Virus record (IMG/VR): IMGVR_UViG_3300028832_000119
Location: 8,924 to 72,923 of that record
Source of the DNA: a virus
Lineage: Duplodnaviria > Heunggongvirae > Uroviricota > Caudoviricetes
Direction: 5' to 3' (one strand)
DNA: 64,000 bases
This document shows, in pieces, positions 5,025 to 49,171 of this stretch. Position 1 is the stretch's first letter; each line of letters begins with the position of its first letter. The notes under the pieces were generated by a model. It searched no databases. It was not told the DNA's origin and was given only the letters and a program-made list of their open reading frames with translations. A program made the position numbers and the translations under genes.

Positions 5025-5085
5025 ATTTACATTAACATTTATAAATTAATTAATATTTATTAGTGGTTCTTTTGAATCCAGCAGT

Positions 5086-5529
5086 TTTAGATGTAGCATC
5101 ATCAAATTTCTAGAAAATTCCTGTTCCCATATTTGGACGAGTCTAATCTAAACTTTTTACTCGCAAAGGAGTATACTCTCCAGGAAGTCTTCTTCTAATA
5201 TTTGTTATAGATGAAGCTGCTCTTTGCGGAGTTATATTACCTACCCATCTTCCTAAATATTTATCAGGATCATACATCATTACTTTCATAACATTAGCTC
5301 TTTCTTCTGGAGAAAGTTTATCAAGAATGTTATTAATATTTAATCTTGAGGCTTTTGTCATTTTATATGCATCAAATAATTCCTAATAATTTGGAAGATC
5401 TGGAACTTCAATTTGTGCAGAATAACCGTTACCCTATTTAATTGTCTTAGGTCCTGTTGCTATAGATTTTGGTTTAACTACTTTAGAAACAGTTTTTGCA
5501 GCTTTCTATGCTTTCATAGCTTTAACCAT
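5086..5529 (-). CDS. hypothetical virion protein (start uncertain; may extend to ~5778); in-frame TAGs
   Basis: Frame of ORF 5143..5361 continues through TAG 5143 and TAG 5110 to TAA 5086-5088. Coherent translation also upstream of 5361 through TAGs 5383, 5434, 5506. Confidence 0.3.
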
Positions 5530-5732
5530 TTGCAAAGCTTCCCAAGCATTTTTAGCTTTTACAGGTCCAGGAGCAGTTCCAGTATATAAATAGGGATTGT
5601 TAGAAGTTTTACTTTTTTCTTCAATAAAATTATAAAGATCTGTTAAAGGAAAGTTTGAATAATTTCCTGCTCCTTGAGGAATAGGATTATAATAATATTC
5701 TCCGTTTATACCTCTACCATTTATTCCTCCCC

Positions 5733-6398
5733 TTATAGTACCTTCTTGATAAAAGGGATTCCGTTTAAACTACCTCCCTTACGATGCATTTTAAATTGAG
5801 CAATAACAGAACCTTCTTGGTGTTTCTTTATTTTAGAACCACATTTATTTTTTCCAATTCCTTTATTATCTTTTAAAGCTTGGTCTGTTTGGGTTTTAGC
5901 TTTTGGTCCAGAATTTTCTTGTCCTTTCTGAATATCTTTTCCAACTACTATTTGTCCTTTTCTCCATTTATCTTCTCTCTTTTTCTTTTCTTCCTCAGCT
6001 TTTTTTCTATTTTTATTAGCTTCAGCAAGTTGCATCATTTTATTTCCATATTGCATTTTAAATTTGGCAACTGCAGAACCTCCACAATCTTTTTTTACTT
6101 GACCGCCATCTTCTTTCTTCTTGCAGCCACAACCAACAGAACCGCCTTTCTTATAATAAACTACTTCTTCATCTTCAGCACATTGATTCTTCAAAGATTT
6201 GAAGTAATTTAATTTAGCACCATGAGCGGCTTTTTGAGCTTGTGCTTTAGAAGCTTGGGCCTTTTCTTTTTGGTATTCAGCATAATATTTTTTTACTTCA
6301 TCCTAATTCTTTGGGCTATATTTCTTAGCTTCTAGCCATTTCTTAAAATTTGCTAATTCCTTCTATTCTTCTGGAGAAAGTTTTTTGTTATTATCCAT
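5733..6398 (-). CDS. Lys/Glu-rich hypothetical protein, ~221 aa, 2 in-frame TAG
   Basis: ATG 6396-6398 (MDNNKKLSPEE-TAG-KELANFKK...) continues into ORF 5733..6194 and ends at TAA 5733-5735. Confidence 0.45.
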
Positions 6399-6400
6399 AA

Positions 6401-6619
6401 TTAATCGACTAAGATTAAATCTTTTGTAGAGAATACTGCTTCTTGTAAAAAGCCGTTCTCTGTAAACCATCTTACCTTTACTCCTTTAAGTAAGGCATTT
6501 TTATCGTCACTTCTAATTATAGAGCGTTCAACTCTATATACCAACATAATAGGTTTATTTGGTATGTCCTGGCGAAGGGTTACCTTCTAGCCAGGAACAA
6601 AATAAATCTTTTCATCCAT
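6401..6619 (-). CDS. small hypothetical protein (72 aa, one in-frame TAG)
   Basis: ATG 6617-6619 (MDEKIYFVPG-TAG-KVTLRQ...) to TAA 6401-6403. Not in the ORF track because of the TAG. Confidence 0.35.
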
Positions 6620-6621
6620 CA

Positions 6622-7206
6622 TTATTTATTCTTATTAAATCTTTCTGTTAAACCTTCATTTACAACTGCAAGAACTCTATTTTCACATACAAGGTGTAAG
6701 TTCTGCTTATAGAAAGGAACTGGAACTGCTGAGTTCTTAGTAAAGAAAATAGTATCATCAGGTTGACACCATTTACATTCAGGACCAACTTCCTGAATAA
6801 CTCCTACCTTAATAAATTGTTCTTCTTCCTCAATTTGTCCATTATCAGTGTTTTTATACTGAGGAGCCATACCTCCCATATCAAGAATAAGTCCAGATTT
6901 AGAATCACGAACAATTCTTTGGAAAGGATTGTCTTCAAATTGTTTTACAAGAACATAATTACCAATAGGCATGATTTCGATGTTAGCCATATTTTCATTT
7001 ACTTTCTTAGCAAATTCTTCTACATTAGTAAATTGTTTGTCAATTTTTTCTGTAAACTTATCAACTTCTTCATTGAAGTTTTTTACATTGCGTTGTTCAA
7101 TAACGTCATCTGCTGTAGTTCCATCTAAAGTCATAACTCTACTTGTACTTTCACCTGCTACATGCATAGCAATTTTTTCATTCTCGCTTAAAATTGGATG
7201 TTCCAT
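6622..7206 (-). CDS. hypothetical protein (194 aa, no TAG)
   Basis: Intact ORF ending at TAA. In-frame TGA lies 5 codons upstream of the Met. Confidence 0.55.
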   Translation of the reverse strand: MEHPILSENEKIAMHVAGESTSRVMTLDGTTADDVIEQRNVKNFNEEVDKFTEKIDKQFTNVEEFAKKVNENMANIEIMPIGNYVLVKQFEDNPFQRIVRDSKSGLILDMGGMAPQYKNTDNGQIEEEEQFIKVGVIQEVGPECKWCQPDDTIFFTKNSAVPVPFYKQNLHLVCENRVLAVVNEGLTERFNKNK

Positions 7207-7207
7207 A

Positions 7208-7480
7208 TTACCATTTATTCATTAAACATTTCTCGGATTCAACGCTTACTTTACTTTTTATTATACAACCGCATTGATCACATATATATGAGCCCATGTA
7301 TTTTATTCTATGCTCACACTTATTACAAATATCTAGTCTTCTTCTTTGTTCATCTGAAGTGTAACCAGTTAAGTTCCTCCAGTTACCTACTATTATATTT
7401 CGTAATTTTAGAAAGAGATTCATAATTTTAAAGATTTCACTTTGTTTCACAAAGTAAAAATTACCACTTACCAGCAACAC
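7208..7480 (-). CDS. Cys-rich zinc-ribbon protein
   Basis: ORF with CNKCEH...CDQCGC motifs. Confidence 0.45.
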   Translation of the reverse strand: MLLVSGNFYFVKQSEIFKIMNLFLKLRNIIVGNWRNLTGYTSDEQRRRLDICNKCEHRIKYMGSYICDQCGCIIKSKVSVESEKCLMNKW

Positions 7481-7656
7481 AGTGGTTACTAAGATTTCTC
7501 ATCTTTATTAATATATGACAACCACAACCTCTGATATATCCTGCTTTTGCGGAAGTTGAAACTTCATTAGTGTCAGGATTTAACCAGAGTTTGGGGTTGC
7601 AAAGACCTAAAGCAGGACTATATATTGGACATTTTTTACATATCTCTTTACGTTCT

Positions 7657-8568
7657 TCAATACTCTATTCGTGCATACTTAGCCTTTTGTTTTTCAAGTT
7701 TGTTTTGTTTAGCATAATGCTTAAGCATCTTTTCCACATCATCTTTTAAATAAGAACAGTGGTATAACGTATTCTTTCCAGAGTGGTCATAGTGATTTAA
7801 AATCAAATCTTTAATAACAAATTCTGGATTTAGTTTTTGAAGCATCCAAGCATAGGTGGATAATTGCAACTGATAATGATTAAAGTTACATTCATCTAAA
7901 TGTCCTAAAGGATACTTCATTTTATCAGCACAACGATTTGCACTATTATAAAATCCTTTTAAGTCTATTTTAGCGTTAGTCTTATGGTCTATGATATAAA
8001 TATCATTTCCATTTTTTACTATAAGGTCTATCTGTCCTGCTAGGTGTAAATCAATTTTAGGATTGTCATAATATATTAAGTATTCAGGATACACTCCATA
8101 ATCTAAGTTTAAATCAGTATAGTCTTTTTTACATACAAACTTTCCACCAATTCCAAACTTTTTTAAAGTAATATTAGAACCTGCATCATAGAATGAATGT
8201 TCTAATTGAGCATGAATCTTAGTTCCTCTTTCACAAGCAATTCTATTTGTTTCAGTCCATTCATCGAGTATATCTTGTTGAACCTTATTTAAATCCTCTT
8301 GAGTTATATTATATACTTCTAAAAAATCTTTAGGTATTTTATGATTCTTCCAAATACCTCCTTTTTCTTTCTTCCAGTCTTCTGGATTCATTATTCTTTC
8401 TAATGCTTTATAAGCACTAACGAATTCCTTATCAAATTCTTTTCCATACTTTTCAATCAAAGTAGTTACTGAAATATATTTGATAGTAGGATCATTCAAA
8501 TTTCCATAATAATGGTCTGCTTCTCTAAATCCCACAGAACCATTAATTTTATCATACTGCATTTCCAT
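7657..8568 (-). CDS. PD-(D/E)XK superfamily nuclease (RecB/Cas4/YqaJ-like exonuclease)
   Basis: 303-aa intact ORF. Motifs GTKIHAQLEH, IDLIV...IIDHKT (D...D/ExK) and QLQLSTYAWM (QxxxY) are typical of the RecB-family nuclease fold. Confidence 0.55.
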   Translation of the reverse strand: MEMQYDKINGSVGFREADHYYGNLNDPTIKYISVTTLIEKYGKEFDKEFVSAYKALERIMNPEDWKKEKGGIWKNHKIPKDFLEVYNITQEDLNKVQQDILDEWTETNRIACERGTKIHAQLEHSFYDAGSNITLKKFGIGGKFVCKKDYTDLNLDYGVYPEYLIYYDNPKIDLHLAGQIDLIVKNGNDIYIIDHKTNAKIDLKGFYNSANRCADKMKYPLGHLDECNFNHYQLQLSTYAWMLQKLNPEFVIKDLILNHYDHSGKNTLYHCSYLKDDVEKMLKHYAKQNKLEKQKAKYARIEY

Positions 8569-8587
8569 TAAACATATAAATTTTTCA

Positions 8588-9199
8588 TTACTTAGAATTA
8601 TCTTTTATATACTATAAAATTCCTTCAACGTGAAGTCTTACAATAGCATGAAAGCCTTCATCACTGAGTAAATAATCTACATCTTTTTTATTATCCTAAA
8701 AAAAGTTTTCCGTTAGTACCGCAGGACAATTAGTATTTTTAAGAACATATAAATGAGCTTCTTTATCTGGATCTCCATCCGAAAAATCAGTTCTCATTTT
8801 AGCGTCCTTTAGATTTGTTTTTGCTGCATTATATAAACAGGTTGCAAGCTCATCAGCTTTAGTTTTACCAACTGATGTAAAAACTTCCCAACCTGTTCCC
8901 TCATGCCATTTACCGTCAGAACCGGAGGCATTTACATGTATAGAAACATAAATACAGTTTTTGTACTGTTTTACTAATTCATTAACAACTTTACATCTTA
9001 AACATAATTCTTTTGATTGAGATACTCCTAAGTCATCATCTTCTACATCAATAAAGACTTTATATCCCATATCTTTAAGAATCGCTGCAGCAGCTTTACA
9101 AACTTCTCTAGAATATTTATATTCTCTAAATTTTCCATCTGGAGAACCTTTTCCTAAGATGCTTTTCTAATGAGCTGTGCCAAAAACAACTGTAATCAT
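8588..9199 (-). CDS. N-acetylmuramoyl-L-alanine amidase (Amidase_3) endolysin; 3 in-frame TAG
   Basis: Core ORF 8696..9070 has SIHVNA and NCPAVLTENFF motifs. Reading through TAG 8696 gives the canonical Amidase_3 C-terminus (DNKKDVDYLLSDEGFHAIVRLHVEGIL-TAG-YIKDNSK) ending at TAA 8588. N-terminus MITVVFGTAH-TAG-KSILGKGSPDGK starts at ATG 9197-9199, which overlaps the upstream TGA (ATGA). Confidence 0.65.
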
Positions 9200-9870
9200 T
9201 TCTTATTGTTATAATCTAATAGTAAAGCTAACTTCTAAATATGTGGTAAAACTTTTCCTGTATAAATGTATCCATATTTCTTAGGAGCTTTATACAACAA
9301 AACAATCATTCCTATTTGTGAATCAGTACCTTCAATAGTAAAGAAAGTAACAGATTCTGCATCACTTGCTTTTACAAGTCGATATAATTTTGGAAGGCTT
9401 GTTTTCATTTCCTCAATATCTAGAAATTTCACATAACTTTGATTATGGATTTTAAATAATTCATCTGCATAATAAATATAATCTAATTTATTCCACTACT
9501 ATCTTAAAGTAGGAACATCTACTGATCTTGGAGCTTCCGTGAGACAAGATAAATACAAATATTTATAACCTTGCAAACTTTGAGTATTATTATGATAATT
9601 CAAAAGTAATACATCAAAAGCATCCTTATCTATTTCTGCTATTGCTTGGATTTGACGGTTTATTTCAACGGCGGTTTCTTTAGAGTACTATTCTGCCTTT
9701 TTATTGGCAATAATTTCCTATTCGAACTTTTGTTGAATCTGATGACCAGTTTCTCCAATTATCTGAGAATATAAAATCCATCCAAATAGAAAAATAATAA
9801 TTACATTTCTAGTTTCAGGCTTAATTTTATTTAATATTCCCCACAAATACTTAATCCAATTTAAATTCAT
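9196..9870 (-). CDS. membrane protein directly upstream of endolysin (holin-like?); 5 in-frame TAG
   Basis: ATG 9868-9870 (MNLNWIKYLWGILNKIKPETRNVIIIFLFGWILYSQII = N-terminal TM helix). Same frame continues through TAGs into ORF 9235..9432 and ends at TGA 9196-9198. Confidence 0.4.
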
Positions 9871-9999
9871 CTTTTTGTTTGTTATAAAATAAAAATATTT
9901 GTATTTATCCAAATGTATTAGTATATTTAGTAATGTCAAAATAATTAATATTCGTTTCGTTAAAGAAATTAAATTTAAGCTTAAAAAATATTTTAGATT

Positions 10000-11361
10000 A
10001 TGAACAACGTTGTTAAAAATTTTAAAAAAGGACACAAAATTCGAATCAAGGAGTCTCAAAAAGGTTCTTTTACTAAATGGTGTGGAGGGGATGTCACAAA
10101 TGAATGTATTTAGAGGGGAAAGAATAGTCCTAACCCTAAGATAAGAAAAAAGGCAACTTTTGCTGCAAATGCTAGAAAGTGGAAACATTAGGAAGGAGGA
10201 AGTATTGAAAGATTTAAGAATCCTTCTGGACCTATCACTGCTAAATAGAAAGCAAGAGCCAACTTAACTAAAAGAAAAACTCCTGATTGGGATAATTTAG
10301 ATAGAGGTTATAGATATTTGACTTAGGATATGAAACTTCCTCATGATTAGGCTATTGCATTAATGGGTAATGTTGTTGAAGAAAGTCAAGGAAATTATAA
10401 GGCTGCTCAAAAGAATGGAAGAGGTAGAGGACTCATTCAATGGGATGGAAGACCTGCTCCTGAAGGTAGATATGGACAATGGGGAAGTATTTGGGCTTCT
10501 GTTGCCAAGAAAGCTAATGTTTACGATCCAGATACTGATACAGTTAAAAATTATTGGGCCCCTTGGAATGGGTTAAAAGGAGAATAGGTTAGACAAAAGT
10601 TTATATCTGCTCCTTTAAAATAGAAAGCTAGAATATATGCTGAATCATACCTTCGTCCTGGAAAACCTAGAATTGCTGATAGACAATTAAGTGCTATGCA
10701 ATTAGATTCTATTTATAATCCTAAAATAAAAAATATTGTAGTACAATAGAAAGTGGGAGGTAAAATAGATTTTCTTAGTTTAGGAGGAAATTTCTCTAAT
10801 ATTCTAAAAAATGTAGGTTCTTGGGCATAGGATAATAAAGATTTAATTAATGGAGTTGGTGGAGCCCTTGTTTCTGGAATAGGTTTATTTAAAAATTCTA
10901 GTGCTTCTGCAGATTTTCGTGATTCAGATAATAAGAGAATCCAAGAAGGCTATAATGCAATAGTTAATGATCTTGGCGATGGAATTGATGAAGAAGTAAA
11001 CTCTCTTATTGCACAAATGAAAGAACAAAATCCAGATTAGAATTTTGGAGAGATTGATTATTAGATGTTACGATAGAAAGTGGAACAATAGCGTAGATAG
11101 AAAAATATGTAGAAAGCTGATATGTATAAATAGTAGGAACTTGAAAAACAAGGAAAAGTTTTAAGTTCTATGGAAGAATCTAATACATCTTTATTAGGAG
11201 GACTTCTAAGTAAATTAGGAGGAATTGGTACTGATGTTTTAAATAGTAAATCTGCTTCTGCAACTAAAGGAACAGCTACAGGTTCTACTGTTGGAACTGG
11301 AGAAACGACTACTTATGTTGGAAGTAATGGAAGTTTAAAATTAAATAACATGTTAGCATAA
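10000..11361 (+). CDS. SLT-domain lytic transglycosylase (virion or lysis peptidoglycan hydrolase); TAG-recoded; C-terminal extent uncertain
   Basis: Frame from ATG 10000 includes ORFs 10363..10587 and 11170..11361 with only TAG interruptions. SLT motif EESQGNYKAAQKNGRGRGLIQW (E-S...G-L-I-Q). TAG density rises sharply at 11040-11170, so the true end could be earlier. Confidence 0.45.
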
Positions 11362-11574: not shown

Positions 11575-11994
11575 TCAGTTCTCATAATACAATGTCATTA
11601 AATATTCTTCTGTTATTTCTTTAATTCCAGTTTTAGTAGTTGGGTTCCATATATGATTCTTAAAGAGTTCTCTCATTGTAGGACGAGGTTCATCTTTTTT
11701 AATAAAGCATACTCTTCTAGTATCATCTATGTTCGAACGAACTATTACTTTTGTTACATCTTTCATATAATCCTCTAGCTCATTGCTAGGGGATTTTTCT
11801 TTTTTAATAGGATTATCTATAATTTCTATATCATCTATAGATAATTTCATCCTTTTTAATTTCTTCTCCAGATTTGGAGTAGTGATTATTGTTCCTTTAT
11901 ATTTAAATGTTGTTTCCATAGTTGTCCCACTAGGATTCGAACCCAGGCTAAAGGATTTAGAGTCCCCTGTACTGACCATTATACTATAGGACAA
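11575..11994 (-). CDS. hypothetical protein (139 aa)
   Basis: Intact ORF, standard code. Confidence 0.45.
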   Translation of the reverse strand: MSYSIMVSTGDSKSFSLGSNPSGTTMETTFKYKGTIITTPNLEKKLKRMKLSIDDIEIIDNPIKKEKSPSNELEDYMKDVTKVIVRSNIDDTRRVCFIKKDEPRPTMRELFKNHIWNPTTKTGIKEITEEYLMTLYYEN

Positions 11995-25914: not shown

Positions 25915-27747
25915 ATGATACAAGTAGAATTTAATAAGAAGAATGAAAACCAGTTTTATGGTTTGAGAAACTGTCTGAAGTTGCTTCAAGCCTCAACTGA
26001 TGGTTCAATTAGTATGTATCTAGTAGATGATGCATGGAATGAAGTTAAGAACTCTAAGGAAAATAGAGAACTTTTCTATTCATTGCTGTTCTCTATTGGC
26101 GACATTACTAATAGACAACACAATATTTTCAAGGGTAAGAAGAAAGATAGTGGTGGTGCTGCTAATCGTGAATTCTTCTATGAAATTGTTCATTGGCTTT
26201 GGAAGAACAACAAGGAGCAGTTCATTAAGTTCCTGAATGCCCAACTCTTTAATGAGTATGCTTGTTTCGATGTTCTGTTAAAGAACAGAGTACAAACTAA
26301 GGGTAATAAAGTACTTCATGTGTTTAAGGCATTTGAAGACAAAGAGTATCGTAAGGCTCTGTTAGATTATGTATATGCTGTTGTAAATGGAACTAATCCA
26401 TTCAATAAGCTTCTGATTGCTAAGTTCCTGACTATTCCTCGTACTTCTAAGCGTAAGGGACACAAGAAGATGTTGCCTGAAACTAAGGAGATTATGAAGG
26501 AGAAGTTGAGTTTCTTGACTGATCTTTCTAAGATGATGGGCTGGGAAACAGAATACTTGAAGGGTTATCGTGAGTGGCGTAAGCAGTACAATGGTGACCT
26601 GGAAAGTGTGATGTTTACTACTGGAAAGATTAATGATTTCACTAAGGATGAATTCATTGATTGGTTCGGCAAACTTCCAGCACAAGCTCGTTTCCGTGTA
26701 AAGAATAGAATTCTCTATTCTGAGCAGGAGATAGAACATCCTAATGGAGGTAAGTGCACTGTATATAAGTGGGCTAATTTCCAGCCTTGGATTAAAGAGT
26801 GGGAAACTTATAAGGAACAGAAGCAGCAAGAGCAACGTAATCTTGAGGAAAAGGTTCGTCAAGGTCAAGCTTCTGAGGAAGATAAGGTTAAGCTCCAGAA
26901 GGTTAAGAAGGAGGCCAAGGTAACAGTTGGTGCTACTAACTTTAAGGAGATTTATGATCAGATTGGTACTGGACGACTGGATAAGTTGAAGGTAGAATCT
27001 TTCATGAATAAGGTTAACCTGCCTTATAACTCTTTGGTAATTATTGATAGCTCTGGTTCTATGTCTGGCAAGCCATTCCTATATGCAGCATTTATTGCAG
27101 CAGTATGTTTGTGCAAGAATCCAGATGATGACGGTCGTAACCTGATTGGTATGTTTGATACAAACTCTAAGTGGTTTGCACATATTGATTCACAGGCTTA
27201 TGCTAAGAATTCCATCTTGAGAACTAAGGTTGCTAAGACTAAGGCTCAGCCATTGGTTGATCCTACTAAGAGTTTCTTGGATAACTATGCAGCTATTGCT
27301 AATTTCCTGAGAGATAAGTTCCATGGAGGTTCAACACGTATTGACTCTATTGCTGAAGGTCTGAAGGTAGCTTGTGATGAAGCTCCAGAGATTCTGGATG
27401 CTCTTCGTAACTATCCTGTATGGACTATCATCAGTGATGGTGAGTTCAATAGTATGTACTCTCCAGAAGCTTCAATGGCTGACTTCTTCCGTAAGTGTGA
27501 GAAGTACTTTGGATTCCGTCCTTATGTAGTTCTTATGGACATTTGTGTTGGTTGGAGAAGTCCAGAATCTCTCAAGGCTGACAGATTTAGTGGAATTGAC
27601 AACATGTTGTACATTCCTTCTAATCCTGCTATGATTGAGATGTTCTTGACTAACTTCAAGGATATGGAGACATTTGATGTATATACTCCTCTGTTGAGTA
27701 TGTATCGTTCAAATCGTTATCAACTCGTGCGTGAGAATACTCTTTGA
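25915..27747 (+). CDS. von Willebrand factor A (MIDAS) domain protein, 610 aa; possible TROVE/Ro60-like architecture (unverified)
   Basis: Complete MIDAS: VIIDSSGSMSG (DxSxS) ... T ... TIISDGE. The ~370-aa N-terminal helical region before the vWA domain matches Ro60/Rsr domain order. Host-like codon usage. Confidence 0.55.
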   Translation: MIQVEFNKKNENQFYGLRNCLKLLQASTDGSISMYLVDDAWNEVKNSKENRELFYSLLFSIGDITNRQHNIFKGKKKDSGGAANREFFYEIVHWLWKNNKEQFIKFLNAQLFNEYACFDVLLKNRVQTKGNKVLHVFKAFEDKEYRKALLDYVYAVVNGTNPFNKLLIAKFLTIPRTSKRKGHKKMLPETKEIMKEKLSFLTDLSKMMGWETEYLKGYREWRKQYNGDLESVMFTTGKINDFTKDEFIDWFGKLPAQARFRVKNRILYSEQEIEHPNGGKCTVYKWANFQPWIKEWETYKEQKQQEQRNLEEKVRQGQASEEDKVKLQKVKKEAKVTVGATNFKEIYDQIGTGRLDKLKVESFMNKVNLPYNSLVIIDSSGSMSGKPFLYAAFIAAVCLCKNPDDDGRNLIGMFDTNSKWFAHIDSQAYAKNSILRTKVAKTKAQPLVDPTKSFLDNYAAIANFLRDKFHGGSTRIDSIAEGLKVACDEAPEILDALRNYPVWTIISDGEFNSMYSPEASMADFFRKCEKYFGFRPYVVLMDICVGWRSPESLKADRFSGIDNMLYIPSNPAMIEMFLTNFKDMETFDVYTPLLSMYRSNRYQLVRENTL

Positions 27748-27839: not shown

Positions 27840-28217
27840 ATGAGTGAATTATATTGGATTACTAGATGTGATCCTATTGGAACTGCTGCATTGGTATTTC
27901 TTATTATAAGTTCCGTTCTTCTTGGATTATTAATAATAGGATATGCTGCTTGTTCATCTGATAAAGATGAATCTGGAATTAGCTTGGCTAAAAAATTATT
28001 AAAAATAGTTGTTCCAGTATTTACAGTTAGTTTATTAGTAGAGGTATTTATTCCTACTACTAAAGAAGCTCTAGTAATATATGGAGTAGGTGGAACAGTA
28101 GATTATCTTAAATCTAATCCAACTGCAAAGAAACTTCCAGATAAGTGTATCAATGCTTTGGATAAATGGGTAGACAGTTTCACCTCCGAGAAAAATGATT
28201 CAACTAAAAAGAAATGA
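27840..28217 (+). CDS. small membrane protein (125 aa)
   Basis: Two hydrophobic helices (AALVFLIISSVLLGLLIIGYAA; IVVPVFTVSLLVEVFI). Confidence 0.5.
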   Translation: MSELYWITRCDPIGTAALVFLIISSVLLGLLIIGYAACSSDKDESGISLAKKLLKIVVPVFTVSLLVEVFIPTTKEALVIYGVGGTVDYLKSNPTAKKLPDKCINALDKWVDSFTSEKNDSTKKK

Positions 28218-28995: not shown

Positions 28996-29109
28996 GGCGG
29001 AGTAGTTAAACGGAAAATGAGTATCTGTTTAGTTACTTACAATATCGTATTTATTAACGCAAATTTGTCACATTTGAAAATAGGGGTTCGACTCCCCTCT
29101 CCGCCGCCA
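28996..29109 (+). tRNA. tRNA-Asp-like (GTC) with ~40-nt insertion in the D-loop; CCA encoded
   Basis: GGCGGAG...CTCCGCC-G-CCA acceptor, D-stem GTTA/TAAC enclosing AACGG + insertion (contains TTACTTACAA), canonical CAAAT-TTGTCAC-ATTTG anticodon arm, AGGGG-TTCGACT-CCCCT T-arm. Confidence 0.45.
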
Positions 29110-29457: not shown

Positions 29458-29581
29458 GCCCAGGTAACTTAGTAATAAATTTTTTAGTAGCTAAAGTTAC
29501 TTACAATATCATAATTAAATTTTCGGTAAAAGTATTTGTCTGTTAAACAAAGTATCGCTGGTTCGAGTCCAGCCCTGGGCG
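29458..29581 (+). tRNA. tRNA-Asn (GTT) with ~45-nt D-loop insertion carrying AGTAGCTAAAGTTACTTACAA
   Basis: GCCCAGG/CCTGGGC acceptor, D-stem ACTT/AAGT around the insertion, TTTGT-CTGTTAA-ACAAA anticodon arm, GCTGG-TTCGAGT-CCAGC T-arm. Confidence 0.45.
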
Positions 29582-30002: not shown

Positions 30003-30079
30003 GAAGGGTTCGTCCAGTGGTAAGACTGCAGTTATGGTTATGTCAGCTGTAGAACAGGGGTTCGATTCCTCTACCCTTC
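30003..30079 (+). tRNA. tRNA-like gene with enlarged (15-nt) anticodon-region loop; isotype undetermined
   Basis: GAAGGGT/ACCCTTC acceptor, GGGG-TTCGATT-CCTCT T-arm, TGCAG...CTGTA stem around TTATGGTTATGTCAG. Confidence 0.3.
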
Positions 30080-30186
30080 TCAATTATCTATGGAACTTGA
30101 CGAAATAGGGGTCGCGCAGGAAGCAGCTTATAAATCATGACCCGCTGCTAAGATCAATAAAGTAGATAATTTGTCCGACGGGACAG

Positions 30187-30251
30187 TGTCAATAGCTTAG
30201 TGGAAAGAGCTCCTGCAAAGGACGACGGTGGTTCGAATCCATCTTGACACA
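30187..30251 (+). tRNA. tRNA-like gene (clear acceptor/D/T arms, irregular anticodon arm)
   Basis: GTGTCAA/TTGACAC acceptor, GCTT-AGTGGAAA-GAGC D-arm, GGTGG-TTCGAAT-CCATC T-arm. Confidence 0.3.
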
Positions 30252-30261
30252 CAATTATAGG

Positions 30262-30300
30262 TTACTTACAAAAACAATTATCGTTGGTTCGATTCCTCTA
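30262..30300 (+). other. TTACTTACAA motif followed by a duplicated tRNA 3' half (copy of 30059-30086)
   Basis: ggttcgattcctctacccttc is repeated verbatim downstream of the motif. No 5' half present. Confidence 0.4.
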
Positions 30301-30439
30301 CCCTTCACTATGAAAAATTTAGATGTAAATACAATGTATCAACATGATACAGAAATAAGTCCTGCTTTAAGATATTGTCAACCAGGATTATTAATTAATT
30401 TAAAAAAGTTTTTAAAATTATTAAACAAAGATTAACAAT

Positions 30440-30955
30440 ATGGAACAAATTATTTATGGAATTACAGCAGTAATCTATGCCGTATTCATTATTCGATTTA
30501 TCCTTAGTTGGGTAGGTGGAGATTTTGATTTTGACATAGATGACATTGATTTGGATTTAAGTGATGTAGTTTCCTTTAAAGGTGCTACTCATTTTCTAAT
30601 GGGATTCTTTAGTTGGTTATCAACTACATTATTAACTACTCATACTATAGAATGGTATGATTATATTTTAGCATTTATATTAGGTGTAATATTCGTAGTG
30701 ATATTATTTTATACCTATAAATTAATGTTAAATTTAGAAAGTAATCCAACTATATTAAAAGAAAGGGATTTAATTGGAACACCTGCAAAAATATATCTAT
30801 CTTCTAAAAAGAAAAGAGATGATGATTACCATTATTTAATTACAGTAGAAAATAGTACTGGAACATTCGAAGTTCCTGCTAAATCTGTTGATCTTTATAG
30901 TATTGGTGATATGGTGCAAATTAAAGACTTCAGTGGATCTTATTACATTATTTAA
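30440..30955 (+). CDS. NfeD-like membrane protein (partner of flotillin)
   Basis: N-terminal TM helices plus a C-terminal beta-rich domain (GTPAKIY...VENSTGTFEVPAKS...GDMVQIKDFSGSYYII), typical of short NfeD/YuaF-type proteins. Directly precedes the flotillin gene. Confidence 0.5.
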   Translation: MEQIIYGITAVIYAVFIIRFILSWVGGDFDFDIDDIDLDLSDVVSFKGATHFLMGFFSWLSTTLLTTHTIEWYDYILAFILGVIFVVILFYTYKLMLNLESNPTILKERDLIGTPAKIYLSSKKKRDDDYHYLITVENSTGTFEVPAKSVDLYSIGDMVQIKDFSGSYYII

Positions 30956-30971
30956 ATAACAAACAAACATT

Positions 30972-33044
30972 ATGACATTAACAACTATTATTGTTGCAGG
31001 AGTAATTGTTCTCCTAGTGATTTTAACAATTATCGGGCTTTTGTCTCGTTATCGTAGATGTCCCAGTGATAAACTGTTAGTTGTATTTGGTCGAAATAAG
31101 ACCAAAACAGTTGAGGAAACCTACAAAGATGTAGATGGTAAAGAGAAAACTCGTAAAGTAACTCTTCATCTCCCTGCTAAGATTATTCAAGGTGGTGGTA
31201 CATTTGTATGGCCTATTGTCCAGGATTATCGTGAGATGTCTCTCAGACCTATTCTTCTTAGTAAGAAGATTGAGGGTGTATCATCTCAGATGATTAAGAC
31301 CTTTGTATCAATTGAATTGTCAGTAGCTATTGGTAATGAAGAAGAGCTTCGTATGAATGCAGCTTCTCGTTTCTTGAGTGCTAATGAGAGTGAAATTAAG
31401 AACTCTATTGAGGCTATCTATGTAGGTGAGGTAAGATCTCTGATGGCTCGTATGACCATTGAGGAACTGAACTCTGATAGAGAGGCATTCTTGACTGATG
31501 CTAAGAGAAATATTGAAATTGAGCTGCAAAAGGTTGGTTTCGTTATTCTTAACATTAACATTTCAGACCTGGATGATGATGCAGATTATATCACCAACTT
31601 AGGTCAGAAAGCTGCTACTCAGGCTAAGGCAACAGCTGAGGCTGATATTGCTGAGCAGGAGAAGATTGGAGAGGTTAAGATTGCGAATACTCGTAAGGAG
31701 AAATCTATCCAGTTAGCAGAAGCACAGAAAGAAGAGGAAATCCAGGTAGCTGCACAGAATAAAGATCGAGAGACTACTGTTGCTCAAACTAAACAGGAAC
31801 AAGAAGTTCGTGTTGCAGAGATTGAGAAAGAAAAGCAGACTAAGATTGCTGATACTCAGAAGGCTAAGGAAGTACAGCTTGCTGAGATTAAGAAGGATAA
31901 GGAATCTGGTATTGCTAGTCAGAAGGCTCTTGAGATTGCTGCTGTGGCAGAGGCTGATGCAAATGCTGAATCAAGTAAGGCTGAAGCTGAAGCACGTAAG
32001 GTTGCTGCAGTTGCTGCTCAGAAAGCAAAGGCAGAGTCTTCTAAGGCAGAATCTGAGTCTAATCAGCGTAAGGCTGTAGCTGCTGCACAGGCAGATGCAG
32101 AGGCAACTGAGAATGAGAAGGAAGCTCTTAAGCAGACTCGTATTGCTCAAGCTAATCAGAAGAAGGAAGCTGATATTATCCAGGCTACTCAGGAGAAGGA
32201 AGCTAAACAGGCTGAGTTCGAATCACAAAAGCAGATTCGTAAGGCTAAGGCTGACCAGGATGCTGGTGTAGCAGAACAGAATGCAAAGATTCTCGTAGCC
32301 CAGGCTCGTGCAAAGGCTGGTCAAGCAGAAGCTGATGCTGATAAGACTGTAAAGGTTGCTAAGATTGAAGCTGACATGAAGGCAGCTAAGACCCAACAGG
32401 AACGTCAGTTAGAGGTAAATGAGGCTGAGGCATTGGCAGTTGAAGCTAAGTTGAATGCTGAGCAGGTTGTACCTGCTGAGCAGGCTAAGAGAAAGACCAT
32501 CATCGAAGCAGAAGCTATTAAGGAACAGGCTATTCTTCAGGCAGAAGCGGAAAAGCAACGTATTCTTAAGAAGGCTGAAGCTGATGCAGAACAGGTTCGT
32601 CTAAAGATGAATGCTGAAGCTGAAGGTATTAAGAATAAGAAGCTTGCTGAGGCTGAAGGTCAGAAGGCTCTGTTGTTTGCAGAAGCAGAGGCTCTCCAGA
32701 AGAGAGAGATGGCTCCTGCACTGGCTCTGCAGAAGATGGTAGAATCATTCGGCGGTAACCCTGATCTTCTTGTTCAGTACAAGATGGTTGATCAGTATAA
32801 GGGCATTGCTGAGGCTCAGGCTCATGTACTTGAACATATTCAGCTTGGTAATGTTACTGTTTATGGTGACTCCAACACTGGTGCTCAAGTTGCTAAGAGT
32901 TTCGTTGAGAACTTCTCACCTGCTCTGGATATTATCAACAAAGGATTTGGTAAGCAATTTGGACAGCTCTTTAATAAAGAGAAGAAAGAAGAGTTGCCAG
33001 CTCCTGAAGAGAAAAAGGATGAAACTTTTGAGGAAGTAAAGTAA
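30972..33044 (+). CDS. flotillin-like SPFH/band-7 protein with long Ala/Glu-rich coiled-coil repeats (690 aa)
   Basis: N-terminal membrane anchor, SPFH-like region, then an extended EA-repeat coiled coil (KAEAEARKVAAVAAQKAKAE...), as in bacterial FloT/YqiK. GC-richer, host-like codon usage. Confidence 0.6.
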   Translation: MTLTTIIVAGVIVLLVILTIIGLLSRYRRCPSDKLLVVFGRNKTKTVEETYKDVDGKEKTRKVTLHLPAKIIQGGGTFVWPIVQDYREMSLRPILLSKKIEGVSSQMIKTFVSIELSVAIGNEEELRMNAASRFLSANESEIKNSIEAIYVGEVRSLMARMTIEELNSDREAFLTDAKRNIEIELQKVGFVILNINISDLDDDADYITNLGQKAATQAKATAEADIAEQEKIGEVKIANTRKEKSIQLAEAQKEEEIQVAAQNKDRETTVAQTKQEQEVRVAEIEKEKQTKIADTQKAKEVQLAEIKKDKESGIASQKALEIAAVAEADANAESSKAEAEARKVAAVAAQKAKAESSKAESESNQRKAVAAAQADAEATENEKEALKQTRIAQANQKKEADIIQATQEKEAKQAEFESQKQIRKAKADQDAGVAEQNAKILVAQARAKAGQAEADADKTVKVAKIEADMKAAKTQQERQLEVNEAEALAVEAKLNAEQVVPAEQAKRKTIIEAEAIKEQAILQAEAEKQRILKKAEADAEQVRLKMNAEAEGIKNKKLAEAEGQKALLFAEAEALQKREMAPALALQKMVESFGGNPDLLVQYKMVDQYKGIAEAQAHVLEHIQLGNVTVYGDSNTGAQVAKSFVENFSPALDIINKGFGKQFGQLFNKEKKEELPAPEEKKDETFEEVK

Positions 33045-33195
33045 ACTTCTTTTCTGTGAATAAAAATAGGATACTTACAATAATATATGCATTACATTGA
33101 TAGTTCGAATCTATCTTTTGGCTCCATGCCTAAATCGCTCAATGGTAGAGCATCAAATTTGTAATTTGACGTAAATTATTAGTATCCTTTTATGT

Positions 33196-33302
33196 GAGGT
33201 CTTAGTTTTTAAGGGGTAGAATGGCTATGCTGTGGTAAAGAGCTTCGGGTTAGAAAGTGTTCCCATATCATAGAAGGTGTTGGTTCAAATCCAACAGACC
33301 TC
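33196..33302 (+). tRNA. tRNA-like gene (~107 nt) with internal insertion; isotype undetermined
   Basis: GAGGTCT/AGACCTC acceptor 107 nt apart, GTTGG-TTCAAAT-CCAAC T-arm. Confidence 0.3.
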
Positions 33303-33485: not shown

Positions 33486-33530
33486 GCACATTAAATCACG
33501 GGTTCGATTCCCGTAAGAACCGCCATTTTT
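33486..33530 (+). other. motif + tRNA 3' half (T-arm ACGGG-TTCGATT-CCCGT plus AAGAACC-G-CC) with no matching 5' half nearby
   Basis: Preceded by AAGTTACTTACAA. No GGTTCTT partner strand upstream. Confidence 0.3.
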
Positions 33531-33632: not shown

Positions 33633-33690
33633 TTCGTATGAATGAATTGAGGGTTCGAATCCCTTCTTTGCTTATGCAATGTGGCGGAAT
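33633..33690 (+). ncRNA. small cloverleaf-like tRNA mimic with the ACTTACA motif as the loop of the D-arm-position hairpin
   Basis: TCAAAGA-TTA-[GAGAT-ACTTACA-ATCTC]-[CATTC-GTAT-GAATG]-AATT-[GAGGG-TTCGAAT-CCCTT]-CTTTGC. Confidence 0.3.
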
Positions 33691-36727: not shown

Positions 36728-37393
36728 CCTATCTTTAATGCATAGATATAAAACAGCATTAGTGGTACTATTCCTTCTCAAAGTTAATAGCGTAAGTTAA
36801 TGTCTTTTACGATAGTAAAGCATCGATTTTCTCCTTAAAGTTAGAAAGTGAGACGTTTGGTTTTGTTAGTTTTACAGCGTGAAGTAAAAACTAATAGGAT
36901 TATCGGAACGATAGGTCGCTCCTATGGGTAGATAATTAACAATAATGGAGTTTGGCAGATTCCATTATTAATTGGGCCTTACAGGATTAGACGGCTGTTG
37001 AAGGTAATAAGAACAAGCAAAGACGGATGGAAAGACATCAAATAATTAAATGGCAATAAAGCTAAAACTGTAACCATCGGTAGCAGAAGCTTCCGTATGG
37101 CTGCCTAAGTTGGTAACTTACTTAGTCGTCAGAAAGTTACAATAATAGAAATTATTAAACTTAAGTCATTAAACAAGGGAGCCTTGGTCCTTCTAATTGA
37201 CTGATTAGTAAATTATAGGCTGGTGGAACTGATGACTATCCAGTCATCCCCTTGGAGAAGAATAACTCCTTAAAAAATTGAAAAGCTTGTATAATTCTTA
37301 TAGAATAAGCAGTTCGGACGAGGTTTCGACTACCTCAAGGTCCACTTTATTACGTTATTTATTAACGAGATACTTTACAAAATCATATTTTAT

Positions 37394-45278: not shown

Positions 45279-45654
45279 TAAAACTTAATAATATGAAACT
45301 AAGAGTATTAAAAAAGAAGCATCCATCTAAATTAGAAAGGATATGGATTGAACACTATTTAGTATGGAAATCCTTAAAATGGTTAAATGAGGATTATCAA
45401 TCAATAAGACTTTATTATATGGAGTCTTGTAAAAAACATATTGGACTATGATAATAGATTTTAGTAAATATGATTGCTTTATAGCAGAATGTTATGAAGC
45501 AGAAGATGAATTTTGGAAAGGAATTTATGAAGATATTGAGTCTGATTATTGGATAAATGAAAATAAAAATAATTTTTGATTTTTTAACAACTATTAATAG
45601 TATTAACTGTTAATAGTAGATAGTTCAATTTTTTAACGTTAAAAATCAAAATTT

Positions 45655-47979
45655 ATGAATAAATTAGTTTCTAAAAACCCTATTTAGAGGTTTAAAGAGG
45701 GTAGAAAAATTGAAAAGTTTGAAACCGGAGGTTTTACATATAATGGAAAACATTATGTTGGTGGAGGAACTAAAATTGTTAATTGGCTAAAAAAATAGAT
45801 GATGCCGTTTGGAGCAATTCCTGTAAAATAGCAATCTTAGAAAACAAAAAGAACTGTTTATCCTTTATATAATTCAACTACTGGAGAAACAACTTATTAT
45901 AATTCTTTAGAAGAAAGGGAAGCTGCTAAACAAAATATAATTAATTCAAAAAATAATATTACAATAAATAATTCTGGAGTAATTCCTGGAGTTAATGATA
46001 TTGATACTCAAATGAGAATTAATCAATTACCTTCTGCAAAATTAAAAAAGCCTCTTAAGACTCAAGAATAGTGGAATACAGAGTTTCAAAATAACTTTAT
46101 TAATAATTTAACCCAGGATTAGAGATAGTATTTAGATTCTCAAGGAGTTAATTTTAATGATGTTAAAGCGGTACAAAAATTTATAGGTACCAATGATGAT
46201 GGAAAATGGGGAAGAAATTCTATAAATGCTTGGAATAAATTTATTTCTACAATTCCTTAGAACTTTTCTTAGACAAGAGAAGAACAATCTATGATGCAAG
46301 GAACAACTCCATATGTAGAAACCCCAATAACTCCTACTAAATATACTACAAATAATACTTATATGGATAAAACTCAATTTAGAGACAATATCAGAGGATT
46401 GGGTATTTAGAGTAATGCAGATTTAATTAATTGGATGCATTAGACTGGAGCTGAAGGATATGATTTTGGAGGAAATCAATGGGCTAAACAATTTAGAAAC
46501 GACGTTGATAGAGTTCTTGGAGGAGACTATTCTGATGCTAATATTAGAAAAACATTTAATACTGCTGGAAATTGGGGTAGAGGTTTTTTAGGTGGAGGAG
46601 ATTTAAGTGATTTCCAAAATGCAATGGCAACTAATGCTGGAGTATGGAATGGAATAGCTGATGCTGGAAAGTAGCCTACAATTCAATTTGATCGCTCAGC
46701 TACAAGAGAATGGTTAAGAAATAATGCTGGAGGCTCAGCATATGCATTTACTGGTGATTAGAGAAAAGCAGTAAGAAATATATTAAATGGCTAGGGAACA
46801 GACCAAGATAAAGAATTAATTAAAGGAAATGCTGATTTAGTAAAAGCATTAACAGGTTATTTTAAAACAGGAGGAAATATGATATTACCATCAAGAAATA
46901 TTGTTGAAAGATTTAAACAAGGAAAGAAAATAGAATATTTTTAGAATGGAGGAGTAAAAAGATTTAAAGTAAGTTATAAAACTAGAACTGGAGGAGATTG
47001 GCTTGAAAAATAGTTTAATACTTAGGAAGAAGTAAATGCTTTTAGAAAAAGACTTAGCCATGTTCCAGTTTTTAAAGTTGATGATATGAAAGGAGCTTCT
47101 AGGGGTTCTGTAGTAAAAGCTGATAGAACTAAAGGAAAAGATGCTGCTACAACTGCCTATGATAGATAGGAAGCTGAAAAAAATAACATGATGTCTTTTA
47201 AACAAGCTTATTCTCAAGCTAGAAAATCTGGAAATAAATATTTTGCTTATAAAGGAAAAGTATATAAATCTGATTTAGAAAATGGAAAAGATAATATGAC
47301 TGAAATGCAATAGCTTTATGGAACTCATTTAGGTTATTCATCCAATCCAAAATTACAAAATAAACAATCAAGAACAGCTAGAGAATAGTATAGAAAAGAT
47401 ACTAAAGCTACTAATACTAATAGAAATGCTAATTTCAAGGGAGAAACAAATTCTCAAGCAAATGCTAGGGCTGACAAAAATTTTGATAGAAAATTGGGAG
47501 TAAGTACATTAGCTCCAGATTTTATTGATGCAGTATCTCCTCAAACAGCTATTGGGAACTTTATGAATATGGCAGGCTCTGCTATAACCGGAGAACATTT
47601 TACTCCAAAAATTTATTAGAATGGATTTAATATCCCAGGATATGCTTCAGATTTAACTTAGAGTAAATATAAAGATTTAGCATTTAGAGGATTAGACGCT
47701 TATTTATCTTTGGGAGCTCCTGGTGCTAGAGTAAATATGACTCCTGGAGGTACTAATGTAACTGAAGGTGCTACAATATTACCTAATGGAACAAGAGAAT
47801 TTTCTAAATGGCATTTAAGATCTTTAGGACCTAATGCTACTAGACCTATGGAAGGAGTATTAAGAAGTTCTAGAGGCACTACTTATTATATTGATAATGG
47901 ACAATTTATGAAAAATTTAACTATTCCAGCATTAGTATCTAATCCAATTATTCAATAGATATAGAATTTAGAAAAATAA
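45655..47979 (+). CDS. large TAG-recoded protein (~775 aa, ~30 in-frame TAG) with a peptidoglycan-binding domain; probable virion/tail-associated protein
   Basis: ATG 45655 after an in-frame TAA. Single frame to TAA 47977-47979 with only TAG interruptions (e.g. caa TAG ctt tat gga at 47311). PG_binding_1-like motif VKAVQKFIGTNDDGKWGRNSINAWNKF. The TAA overlaps the next ATG (TAATG). Confidence 0.5.
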
Positions 47980-48990: not shown

Positions 48991-49063
48991 GCTCGTATAG
49001 TTCAATTGGCAGAACGGTGGTCCTCAAAACCAAATGTTGAGAGTTCGATCCTCTCTATGAGCA
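48991..49063 (+). tRNA. tRNA-Trp-like with apparent UCA anticodon (candidate opal/UGA-reading suppressor); C at position 33
   Basis: GCTCGTA/TATGAGC acceptor, GTTC-AATTGGCA-GAAC D-arm, TGGT-CCTCAAA-ACCA anticodon stem-loop (anticodon TCA at 49024-49026), ATGTT variable loop, GAGAG-TTCGATC-CTCTC T-arm. The body closely parallels the CCA-anticodon tRNA-Trp at 51545 and E. coli tRNA-Trp, except loop CCTCAAA versus CTCCAAA. Confidence 0.4.
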
Positions 49064-49171
49064 CTAAATAATAAATTGTTAATTTTTATTAAATTCATAA
49101 GTTTGAGTTTGAATTTTCAAACTTAAAAATATATTTATAGTACGAAGATTAAAACCCCTTCGTCTATTAAT

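Follow-up and report, generated by a model that had tools for sequence, protein, structure and literature searches.

A large phage, probably of the crAss-like group, carries two adjacent genes encoding an NfeD-like membrane protein of 171 amino acids (aa) and a flotillin-type SPFH protein of 690 aa. The DNA analyzed is a 64,000-nucleotide (nt) stretch of the IMG/VR virus record IMGVR_UViG_3300028832_000119 (positions 8,924 to 72,923; Caudoviricetes), hereafter the window, and all coordinates are positions within it (Table 1). We hold with moderate confidence that the pair is an old, conserved two-gene phage module that would build flotillin/NfeD cages on the host membrane and that, as part of the same reading, it descends from an NfeD-like/flotillin operon of Bacteroidales-type hosts, followed by long evolution inside phages. 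Scattered SPFH annotations in phages and giant viruses were already known, as were NfeD-flotillin operons in bacteria. What is new is the complete NfeD-flotillin pair as a clade-wide trait of abundant crAss-like gut and rumen phages, together with the expanded helical region and the codon signature of the phage flotillin. A literature search returned no paper on phage-encoded flotillin/NfeD and none linking crAss-like phages with flotillin; flotillin and NfeD go unmentioned in jumbo-phage reviews and in the Jug-phage paper, and the presence of viral SPFH proteins in phages has been called unexplained (PMC13239085). One literature match, to "Perkons," concerned a host floA gene disrupted by integration and is not relevant to phage-encoded flotillin.

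Both genes are on the plus strand, 16 nt apart in the list of open reading frames (ORFs), and have the coordinates and lengths assigned to them by an earlier reading made from the DNA letters alone (the sequence-only reading). That reading had also placed the pair between tRNA arrays, and Rfam tRNAs indeed flank it closely on either side, with more tRNAs beyond these two in both directions.

The 690-aa protein matched the Pfam family Band_7 (PF01145) over aa 66 to 231, scoring 64 bits where the cut-off is 23.6 (E=2.4e-17), and all 34 clade members scanned matched it too; the sequence-only reading, which would have been refuted by the lack of an SPFH/Band_7 match, thus passes this check. The sole NCBIfam match was to the FloT model NF058507 (E=8.7e-42), and because its 143.8 bits fall far under the equivalog cut-off of 700, the protein is, as judged from profile scores, a divergent member of the flotillin family and not a FloT ortholog. 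Against PDB sequences, phmmer matched it to Flot1 and Flot2 only (E about 1e-17). A monomer model built with AlphaFold2 (AF2) on 34 homologs comprised a transmembrane (TM) helix at aa 2 to 25, an alpha/beta SPFH domain at aa 27 to 202, and helices at aa 206 to 305, 313 to 451, and 459 to 592. The mean predicted local distance difference test (pLDDT) score was 64.5, with values of 82 to 89 in the TM helix and mostly ~75 to 88 in the SPFH domain, dipping to 64 to 66 at an insertion at aa 43 to 68. In a Foldseek search of the PDB with this model, ranks 1 to 4 were flotillin complexes (9l3g and 9bq2), and prohibitin, stomatin, HflK/C, erlin, QmcA-YbbJ (8z5g), and vault came next. There were 65 PDB matches at E≤0.001 and, among the matches listed, all were SPFH cages or vault, including the FtsH-enclosing cages 7wi3, 9cz2, and 7vhq. 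By its best matches, then, this SPFH protein is of the flotillin type, nearer to the flotillins than to stomatin, prohibitin, or HflK/C.

Hydropathy, the AF2 model, and composition bear out the flotillin-like architecture described by the sequence-only reading, that is, a membrane anchor, an SPFH domain, and a long helical stretch rich in Glu and Ala. The alignment of flotillin orthologs has more than 100 invariant columns, and residues R26, Y27, and R28, which follow the anchor, are invariant or almost so. Between aa 216 and 585 the protein is 24% Ala, 16% Glu, 14% Lys, and 11% Gln, with 51 EA/AE dipeptides, and the helical region as a whole (aa 206 to 592) presumably forms the wall and cap helices of a cage. 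Self-BLAST of the flotillin found no internal repeats, so the added helix length does not reflect a recent duplication. AF2 confidence is low in the C-terminal region, which nonetheless contains the invariant or near-invariant columns V601, Q602, K604, D607, L625 to V628, G632, and D633; when the last 124 aa were searched against PDB sequences, nothing relevant came up, only chance-level matches to AcrIIC4.

For the 171-aa protein, the AF2 model has helices at aa 2 to 25, 42 to 67, and 72 to 99, followed by a beta domain at aa 115 to 160, which agrees with the NfeD architecture (TM region plus C-terminal beta domain) proposed from the sequence, as do remote profiles. Pfam, PHROG, and NCBIfam scans gave no NfeD or YqiJ match for this protein or for 32 close orthologs taken individually, and a profile of the close orthologs matched nothing among PDB sequences. 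Together with the Bacteroides counterpart WP_007757712, which is a "hypothetical protein" in RefSeq and has no Pfam NfeD match though it is 32% identical to the phage protein, these blanks are what one would see if the 171-aa protein were a small membrane protein outside the NfeD family whose beta barrel is generic, leaving the flotillin alone meaningful. We regard that explanation as highly improbable. A broader profile of 42 distant family representatives matched the YuaF domain (E=1.8e-4), 6 of the 42 matched PF01957 themselves (best E=2e-5), and hhalign aligned the same profile with a Priestia megaterium protein annotated in RefSeq as NfeD family at 95.9% (E=5e-9) over 128 columns that span TM2, TM3, and the OB domain; the gene also keeps its place immediately upstream of the flotillin gene. 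These comparisons show the 171-aa protein to be, at the level of remote homology, a short YuaF-type NfeD protein. The profile check proposed in the sequence-only reading thus came out in parts: Band_7 was matched directly, the Flot and NfeD families were not, and NfeD was reached only through the broader family profile.

The ClpP-like serine protease domain of long-form (PH1510-type) NfeD proteins has no corresponding region or match in the 171-aa protein. An identification as YqiJ was dropped, the hhalign probabilities with E. coli YqiJ being 0.3% and 0.2%, with no BLASTP match; the models YqiJ_N (PF21001) and YqiJ_OB (PF07290), both matched by E. coli YqiJ, are unmatched by the phage protein. 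Of the two bacterial operons to which the pair had been likened, yuaF/floT holds in gene order (nfeD, then flotillin) and in YuaF similarity, and the yqiJ link falls away. Across 32 NfeD-like orthologs the membrane part is the best-conserved region, with R19, W24, D28, D37, D42, S45 to G48, H51, W59, H68, W72, and D74 invariant; the invariance of the acidic loop and of the polar residues R19, H51, H68, and D74 hints that this part is more than a passive anchor.

The pair is widespread in phage-type metagenomic contigs. The two proteins belong to large metagenomic families, with 672 database clusters for the NfeD-like protein and 858 for the flotillin, and among the matches listed all 120 flotillin matches were at least 50% identical. 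In IMG/VR we found at least 79 loci, mostly on contigs of ~95 to 195 kb and on some of up to 435 kb. Of 88 phage-type loci, from gut and rumen, 86 have an NfeD-like gene immediately 5' of the flotillin gene, typically with a gap of 10 to 20 nt; of the two exceptions, one also lacks the 5' end of the flotillin gene, and in the other only 545 nt are available upstream. Inspected contigs of 183, 257, and 362 kb are phage-like and syntenic, with a gene for a 610-aa protein upstream and tRNA-sized gaps, and a codirectional tRNA island surrounds the pair in 8 of the 10 relatives sampled. A pattern scan that took one genome from each of 185,579 species of prokaryotes returned four loci only, all in metagenome-assembled genomes (MAGs) whose taxonomy is mutually inconsistent (Methanobrevibacter, Gastranaerophilales, Bacteroides, and Clostridium). 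Three of the four are on contigs of 140 to 186 kb, and most simply they are misbinned contigs of large phages. Searches of 50,697 GenBank phage records with the pair (blastn) and with 25 kb of the window (megablast) found essentially nothing, and a cluster look-up of the distant NfeD-like representatives yielded metagenomic proteins only and did not point to a donor.

The nearest cellular pair found is that of Bacteroides finegoldii, WP_007757712 (165 aa) and WP_007757713 (548 aa, annotated as a flotillin family protein), which are 32% and 34% identical to the phage proteins. It lies on NZ_OY725925.1 (small gene at 5410 to 5907), a replicon that carries housekeeping genes; the record is labeled "plasmid 23," yet it has truA, purC, ubiE, and aroE-type genes. 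In a neighbor-joining tree of 17 flotillin taxa, the window clade is monophyletic (support 84) and is sister, again with support 84, to a group (support 100) of Bacteroides and csAssE-Sib (OR575929.1), the only fully sequenced and annotated phage in which we found the pair. The Bacteroidota connection suggested by the sequence-only reading is upheld by this tree and by the B. finegoldii pair. The csAssE-Sib flotillin is 63% identical to the Bacteroides one and, given this identity and the full support for their grouping, represents a separate and more recent acquisition or a replacement; the flotillin of Vibrio phage KIT04, because it groups with Pseudomonas (support 97), represents an independent acquisition. 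The tree suggests at least three separate acquisitions of flotillin by phages, each from the lineage of the respective host, and suggests that the one leading to the window flotillin was old or that the gene evolved fast.

The sequence-only reading had instead proposed recent capture, and base composition is where that case begins. Its figure of ~42% G+C (GC) for the pair applies to the flotillin gene (42.6%) and not to the NfeD-like gene (27.5%); the mean of the window genes is 32%. The excess resides at codon position 1 (0.60 in the flotillin gene against 0.42±0.06 in window genes), because GC at this position follows the Ala, Glu, Gln, and Lys content, and GC at codon position 3 (GC3) is within one standard deviation of the window genes (0.33 against 0.23±0.11; NfeD-like gene, 0.16). 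The preference for GCT, GAG, CAG, and CGT that had been noted is real for the flotillin gene (CAG, 79% against 28% in the phage background; AAG, 77% against 28%; GAG, 49% against 22%; CGT, 65% against 17%), and the preference for CGT and AAG recurs over 85 related loci. It is not host-like: relative synonymous codon usage of the flotillin gene correlates with that of Bacteroides genes at r=0.34 and with that of the phage 610-aa gene, whose relatives were found only on similar metagenomic contigs, at r=0.90, and GCC and GCG together make up 3% of its Ala codons against 46 to 50% in Bacteroides genes. For the NfeD-like gene, codon usage correlates with that of the phage background (r=0.76).

Recent capture would make the pair a passenger operon of host-like composition with no phage-specific role. 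The high GC and distinct codon usage of the flotillin gene would fit, as would the existence of a homologous cellular pair in Bacteroides, and the csAssE-Sib flotillin indicates that captures from hosts do occur. Nevertheless, the nearest cellular pair found is distant, the flotillin matches listed are at least 50% identical and the contigs inspected are phage-like, the prokaryotic species scan returned no more than four taxonomically inconsistent MAG loci, and adjacency is conserved in nearly all related phage loci. Moreover, the GC excess is confined to codon position 1, the NfeD-like gene is phage-typical, and the codon bias of the flotillin gene fits the 610-aa gene and not Bacteroides. 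We consider recent capture very unlikely and largely refuted. The flotillin codon bias would be better explained by selection for particular codons in a gene that is highly expressed, since a cocaptured pair would share a foreign composition and the window pair does not.

The phage itself is probably a large TAG-recoded crAss-like gut phage, and comparison with a published group description makes the Zeta type a probable label. Zeta-group crAss-like phages have a crAss-type TerL and portal, genomes of ~145 to 192 kb, late-gene reassignment of TAG or TGA, and many tRNAs (PMC7886860; flotillin is not mentioned in that description). Three features seen here would fit: the genomes of relatives are mostly ~180 to 190 kb, TAG reassignment is limited to late genes, and tRNAs are many. 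In the first 10 kb of the window, reading TAG as sense restores long minus-strand ORFs, among them those of the portal, the large terminase subunit (TerL), and the endolysin. Two long plus-strand ORFs carry 18 and 24 in-frame TAGs, the TAG-recoded regions being 1 to 11361 and 45643 to 47979. ARAGORN found 34 tRNAs in the window, including a CUA-anticodon suppressor; recoding of TGA leaves ORF lengths unincreased despite a tRNA(UCA). TerL is 26 to 29% identical to Crassvirales terminases, the hosts of which include Bacteroides, Flavobacterium, and Azobacteroides, and 45 to 48% identical to terminases of human-gut phage contigs. Shine-Dalgarno cores precede 3 of 34 plus-strand ORFs, compared with 13.6% of random positions, and such scarcity fits translation in a Bacteroidota-type host.

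In the recoded genes TAG accounts for 45% of TAG, CAA, and CAG codons. The flotillin gene has 52 CAA or CAG codons and no TAG, which at the late-gene rate has P=2.6e-14, assuming that TAG encodes Gln, as recoded TAG is reported to do in crAss-like phages (PMC7886860). Both genes of the pair can be read in the standard genetic code. Standard-code genes make up the non-late part of the genome in crAss-like phages (PMC7886860), and because the pair belongs to this class, it would be expressed early or in the middle of infection. The CAG-, AAG-, and CGT-rich codons that the flotillin gene has in common with the conserved 610-aa gene suggest that flotillin is made in large amounts, with the NfeD-like partner probably made at a lower level.

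How such a module might work can be pictured by analogy with three known assemblies: the Flot1/2 cage, which has 44 subunits, is 22 nm high, and has a wall helix of 189 residues, helix length having been proposed to set cage size (PMC11260169); the HflK/C cage, which encloses FtsH in E. coli (PMC11260169); and QmcA-YbbJ, a solved SPFH-NfeD complex (PDB 8z5g). In the proposed mechanism, many copies of the phage flotillin would be anchored in the host inner membrane by the N-terminal helix, and the SPFH domains and long helices would close into a cage on the cytoplasmic face, an orientation predicted from the positive-inside rule and the RYRR segment that follows the anchor. The three-helix NfeD partner would occupy the patch of membrane inside the cage and dock by its OB domain. 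With ~387 helical residues, compared with 189 wall residues in human flotillin, the cage would be unusually tall. A taller or larger cage is predicted because the phage protein has gained SPFH and helical-region residues relative to the Bacteroides and csAssE-Sib proteins: roughly 20 aa at aa 43 to 55 and 62 to 68 of the SPFH domain, and ~88 aa at aa 353 to 407, 468 to 478, and 567 to 588 of the helical region, where Bacteroides has further gaps. The resulting phage-made membrane microdomain, or holdase, would maintain the function of the host membrane and of selected membrane proteins during infection, or sequester them; in Staphylococcus aureus, FloA and NfeD hold unfolded membrane proteins (PMC11222466). 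We rank a generic scaffold or holdase first because this is the function of the ancestral operon, because the gene lies outside the lysis and late block, and because no defense model matches.

Several points weigh against this picture. We infer oligomer formation, topology, timing, and abundance, as well as the Bacteroidales-type host, and the data point to no client or cargo. Confidence in the AF2 flotillin model is low past the SPFH domain, so the arrangement of three long helices is not given by the model. Absence of TAG denotes compatibility with the standard code and not early transcription as such. The 171-aa protein has no direct Pfam NfeD match, and the Pfam Flot family (PF15975) is matched neither by the window flotillin nor by any of the 34 clade members; the link to Flot is transitive, through the Bacteroides (30.6 bits) and csAssE-Sib (38 bits) homologs, which match it and align through the window C terminus.

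Three other roles would use the same proteins differently. In superinfection exclusion or interphage defense, the scaffold would block the entry of competing phage DNA or nucleate an abortive response. Both proteins are membrane located, standard code, and probably early, a putative lipoprotein gene is nearby, and entry-related roles have been suggested for one phage SPFH lipoprotein, the function of viral SPFH proteins being unexplained (PMC13239085). However, PADLOC-DB gave no defense-model match for the pair or for three neighbor proteins, and the pair is therefore not classifiable under known defense systems. Exclusion proteins are usually small and fast evolving, unlike a 690-aa protein with its many invariant columns and abundance-type codon bias, and the operon from which the pair descends has, in cells, a housekeeping role at the membrane. 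We consider exclusion unlikely.

An equally unlikely role is control of an FtsH-type protease in the manner of HflK/C, in which the cage would enclose or exclude the protease, either protecting unstable phage proteins or reprogramming the turnover of host membrane proteins. E. coli SPFH cages that enclose FtsH (PMC11260169) are among the fold matches given above, and NfeD proteins are annotated as membrane protease regulators, one source so naming the ortholog P0028. Yet the best sequence and fold matches are flotillins and not HflK/C, the bulk of the flotillin would be cytoplasmic, the 171-aa partner has the short NfeD form, which carries no protease domain, and the data point to no client.

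A role in lysis timing, in which a flotillin microdomain would corral holins or stabilize the membrane and so delay lysis, strikes us as quite improbable. Flotillin and NfeD hold and stabilize membrane proteins in S. aureus (PMC11222466), and membrane-repair proteins can delay phage lysis in Bacillus subtilis (PMC8844932). Against this, the endolysin gene is on the opposite strand, ~21 kb away, and TAG recoded, the pair being TAG free, and in csAssE-Sib the pair is among replication genes.

A more specific version of the favored cage module is that phages of the Zeta type, which rank with the most abundant human-gut viruses, make oversized early flotillin/NfeD cages as a phage-specific membrane compartment that would enclose or exclude particular membrane machinery of host or phage and would do more than duplicate host flotillin function; hints from codon usage and synteny suggest that the vWA-like 610-aa protein possibly cooperates. 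This extension is tentative, and we would not bet on it; in it, the helical wall would be about twice as long as that of human flotillin.

In relatives the 610-aa gene keeps its syntenic place 5' of the pair, and its product is 64 to 96% identical among 120 clusters, which is above the flotillin. The protein had no Pfam or PHROG match; it has a MIDAS-like motif, VIIDSSGSMSG, and a marginal vWA match (E=0.044). A Ro60/TROVE-type architecture was considered and set aside, PDB and Pfam giving no support past the marginal vWA match. It is possible that the protein is an abundant early product and that it is functionally linked with the flotillin/NfeD pair.

A motif of ~15 nt, TTAG[T/A]TACTTACAAT (cited also as TTACTTACAA), occurs in 14 plus-strand copies between 25890 and 34673, at positions that include 25890, 28234, 28377, 29033, 29213, 29497, 29734, 30262, 33071, 33466, 33618, 33801, and 34664. 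At ≤1 mismatch there are 22 copies, compared with 12.75±3.2 expected, a number reached by 0 of 100 shuffles. The motif ends 8 to 10 nt ahead of the tRNA-Asp and tRNA-Lys genes and 15 nt ahead of the ATG of the 610-aa gene. With copies on both sides of the pair, it is a candidate promoter or RNA-processing signal by which the pair would form a unit of its own. Scans for sigma-70 promoters and intrinsic terminators around the pair found sites that were fewer or no more numerous than in shuffled sequence and were uninformative.

The tRNA island that surrounds the pair has several other features. A tmRNA encoded by the phage lies within it, ~4 kb 3' of the pair; it is absent from the ARAGORN output. 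There are odd tRNA-like elements at 28996 to 29106, 29512 to 29573, 30003 to 30081, and 33128 to 33196, and isolated T-arm-like strings, GGTTCGA[AT]TCC, follow the repeated motif at 30290 to 30310, 33110 to 33125, 33500 to 33515, and 33650 to 33665. One 111-nt Rfam "tRNA" holds the repeated motif internally, like an intron insert, and the remaining tRNA-like calls are weak or partial and were missed or left untyped by ARAGORN. These elements may be intron-containing, split, or decaying tRNA genes. Between the 610-aa gene and the pair, an ORF of 125 aa begins with a hydrophobic segment ending in GYAAC, followed by SSDKDES, a putative lipoprotein signal. Family searches with this ORF gave no match, and the acidic residues after its Cys resemble those of surface-exported Bacteroidota lipoproteins.

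Table 1. Positions in the window of the flotillin/NfeD pair, its domains, and the other features discussed.
Feature	Coordinates	Strand	Basis or remark
Portal	1-1947	-	PHROG E=6.5e-44; 13 in-frame TAGs
TerL (large terminase)	2176-4452	-	PHROG E=1.8e-68; 13 in-frame TAGs
Endolysin	8588-9202	-	PHROG E=2.3e-40; 3 in-frame TAGs
tRNA gene, CUA	11921-11993	-	Beside TAG-recoded block
610-aa gene	25915-27747	+	
125-aa ORF, putative lipoprotein	27840-28217	+	
Nearest tRNA gene 5' of pair	30186-30251	+	Rfam tRNA, 47.4 bits; 189 nt upstream
Repeated-motif copy 5' of pair	30257-30272	+	169 nt upstream of NfeD-like ATG
NfeD-like gene, 171 aa, short (YuaF-type) membrane protein	30440-30955	+	ATG...TAA
Membrane region of NfeD-like protein, aa 2-99, three helices and conserved acidic loop (GGDFDFDIDDIDLDLSDVVSFKG)	30443-30736	+	Hydropathy, AF2
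C-terminal NfeD-type OB-fold beta domain, aa 108-171	30761-30952	+	
Flotillin-type SPFH gene, 690 aa	30972-33044	+	ATG...TAA
N-terminal TM anchor, aa 2-25, then SRYRRC	30975-31046	+	Hydropathy peak 3.3; AF2 helix
SPFH (Band 7) domain, aa 27-202	31050-31577	+	PF01145; AF2; hhalign to E. coli YqiK 98.1%
Ala/Glu/Lys/Gln-rich helical region, aa 206-592, ~387 aa	31587-32747	+	Composition; AF2 helices
C-terminal region, aa 593-690, QYKMVDQYK...LGNVTVYGD motif and charged tail	32748-33041	+	Conserved columns
Repeated-motif copy 3' of pair	33066-33081	+	27 nt past flotillin stop codon
Nearest tRNA gene 3' of pair	33128-33196	+	Rfam tRNA, 33.1 bits; 84 nt downstream
tmRNA	36974-37347	+	Rfam RF00023, 67 bits, full-length model match
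tRNA gene, UCA	48991-49064	+	

The function of SPFH/flotillin cages in bacteria is debated, and that of the NfeD partner is still less well understood. A phage clade that has retained both genes whole and side by side, with strong conservation and apparently high expression, is a natural experiment on this question; by the argument from conservation, flotillin/NfeD activity must be rate-limiting for the infection of Bacteroidales-type cells. Membrane-microdomain remodeling would join the known host-takeover functions of crAss-like phages. Furthermore, a compact system of two genes whose wall helix is unusually long lends itself to structural study of how helix length relates to cage size, and the Bacteroidales-type NfeD partner, "hypothetical" in RefSeq and overlooked by Pfam, marks an annotation gap.

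Among known systems, other viral SPFH proteins (KIT04, Rhizobium phage Pasto, Streptomyces phage StarPlatinum, and giant viruses; PHROG 200) share the SPFH fold with the window flotillin; unlike it, they are for the most part short (~250 to 340 aa), either stomatin/HflC-like or lipoproteins, and lack an NfeD OB partner. In Vibrio phage KIT04, which is T5-like, a gene (2680 to 2928) for an 82-aa three-helix membrane protein lies directly upstream of the flotillin gene; with three hydrophobic segments, a short acidic loop (TDLDD), and no OB domain, this protein looks like a membrane-only version of the partner. E. coli YqiJ/YqiK follow the same operon logic as the window pair, and the alignment of YqiK with the window flotillin takes in the anchor and SPFH domain (hhalign 98.1%; BLASTP 24% identity, E=2e-13), whereas YqiJ, of the YqiJ_N/YqiJ_OB families, has no detectable similarity to the phage partner. 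In the YuaF/FloT-type operon of P. megaterium (WP_013085444 and WP_013085445), a short NfeD gene is directly upstream of the flotillin gene, as in the window. The likeness extends to the multihelix membrane part and C-terminal OB domain of YuaF-type proteins (YuaF soluble domain, PDB 2k14) and to the anchor, SPFH domain, and EA-rich helices of Bacillus-type FloT, but identity is 17% (hhalign), FloT has 509 aa, and the acidic DxDxD loop motif is absent. The best solved-structure match is the Flot1/2 cage (9bq2 and 9l3g), in which SPFH domains are followed by wall and cap helices, as predicted for the phage protein; the latter differs in having a true N-terminal TM helix and not a lipidated hairpin, and its assembly is a prediction.

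The closest counterparts are the csAssE-Sib and B. finegoldii pairs. Phage csAssE-Sib, from the human gut, has a 151-kb genome with a "transmembrane protein" (WOZ57346) and a "flotillin family protein" (WOZ57345) that are 33% and 38% identical to the window proteins; its flotillin, unlike that of the window, has 566 aa and keeps the Pfam Flot match, and its pair belongs to the replication module, away from any tRNAs. Immediately 5' of the NfeD-like gene there is a gene annotated "acyl carrier protein" (7164 to 7415), possibly a lipid-related neighbor. The B. finegoldii pair has the same gene order as the window pair, with a 21-nt gap, and the same architecture of both proteins, which align over their full lengths. 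The two flotillins differ in codon usage and in the direct Pfam Flot match, which the phage protein lacks, and the phage flotillin is 142 aa longer, with ~20 aa more in the SPFH domain and ~88 to 120 aa more in the helical region. Across this distance, the small proteins still share the DxDxD...SFKG.THF acidic loop and the flotillins the C-terminal QYKMVDQ...LGN[IV]TV[FY] motif.

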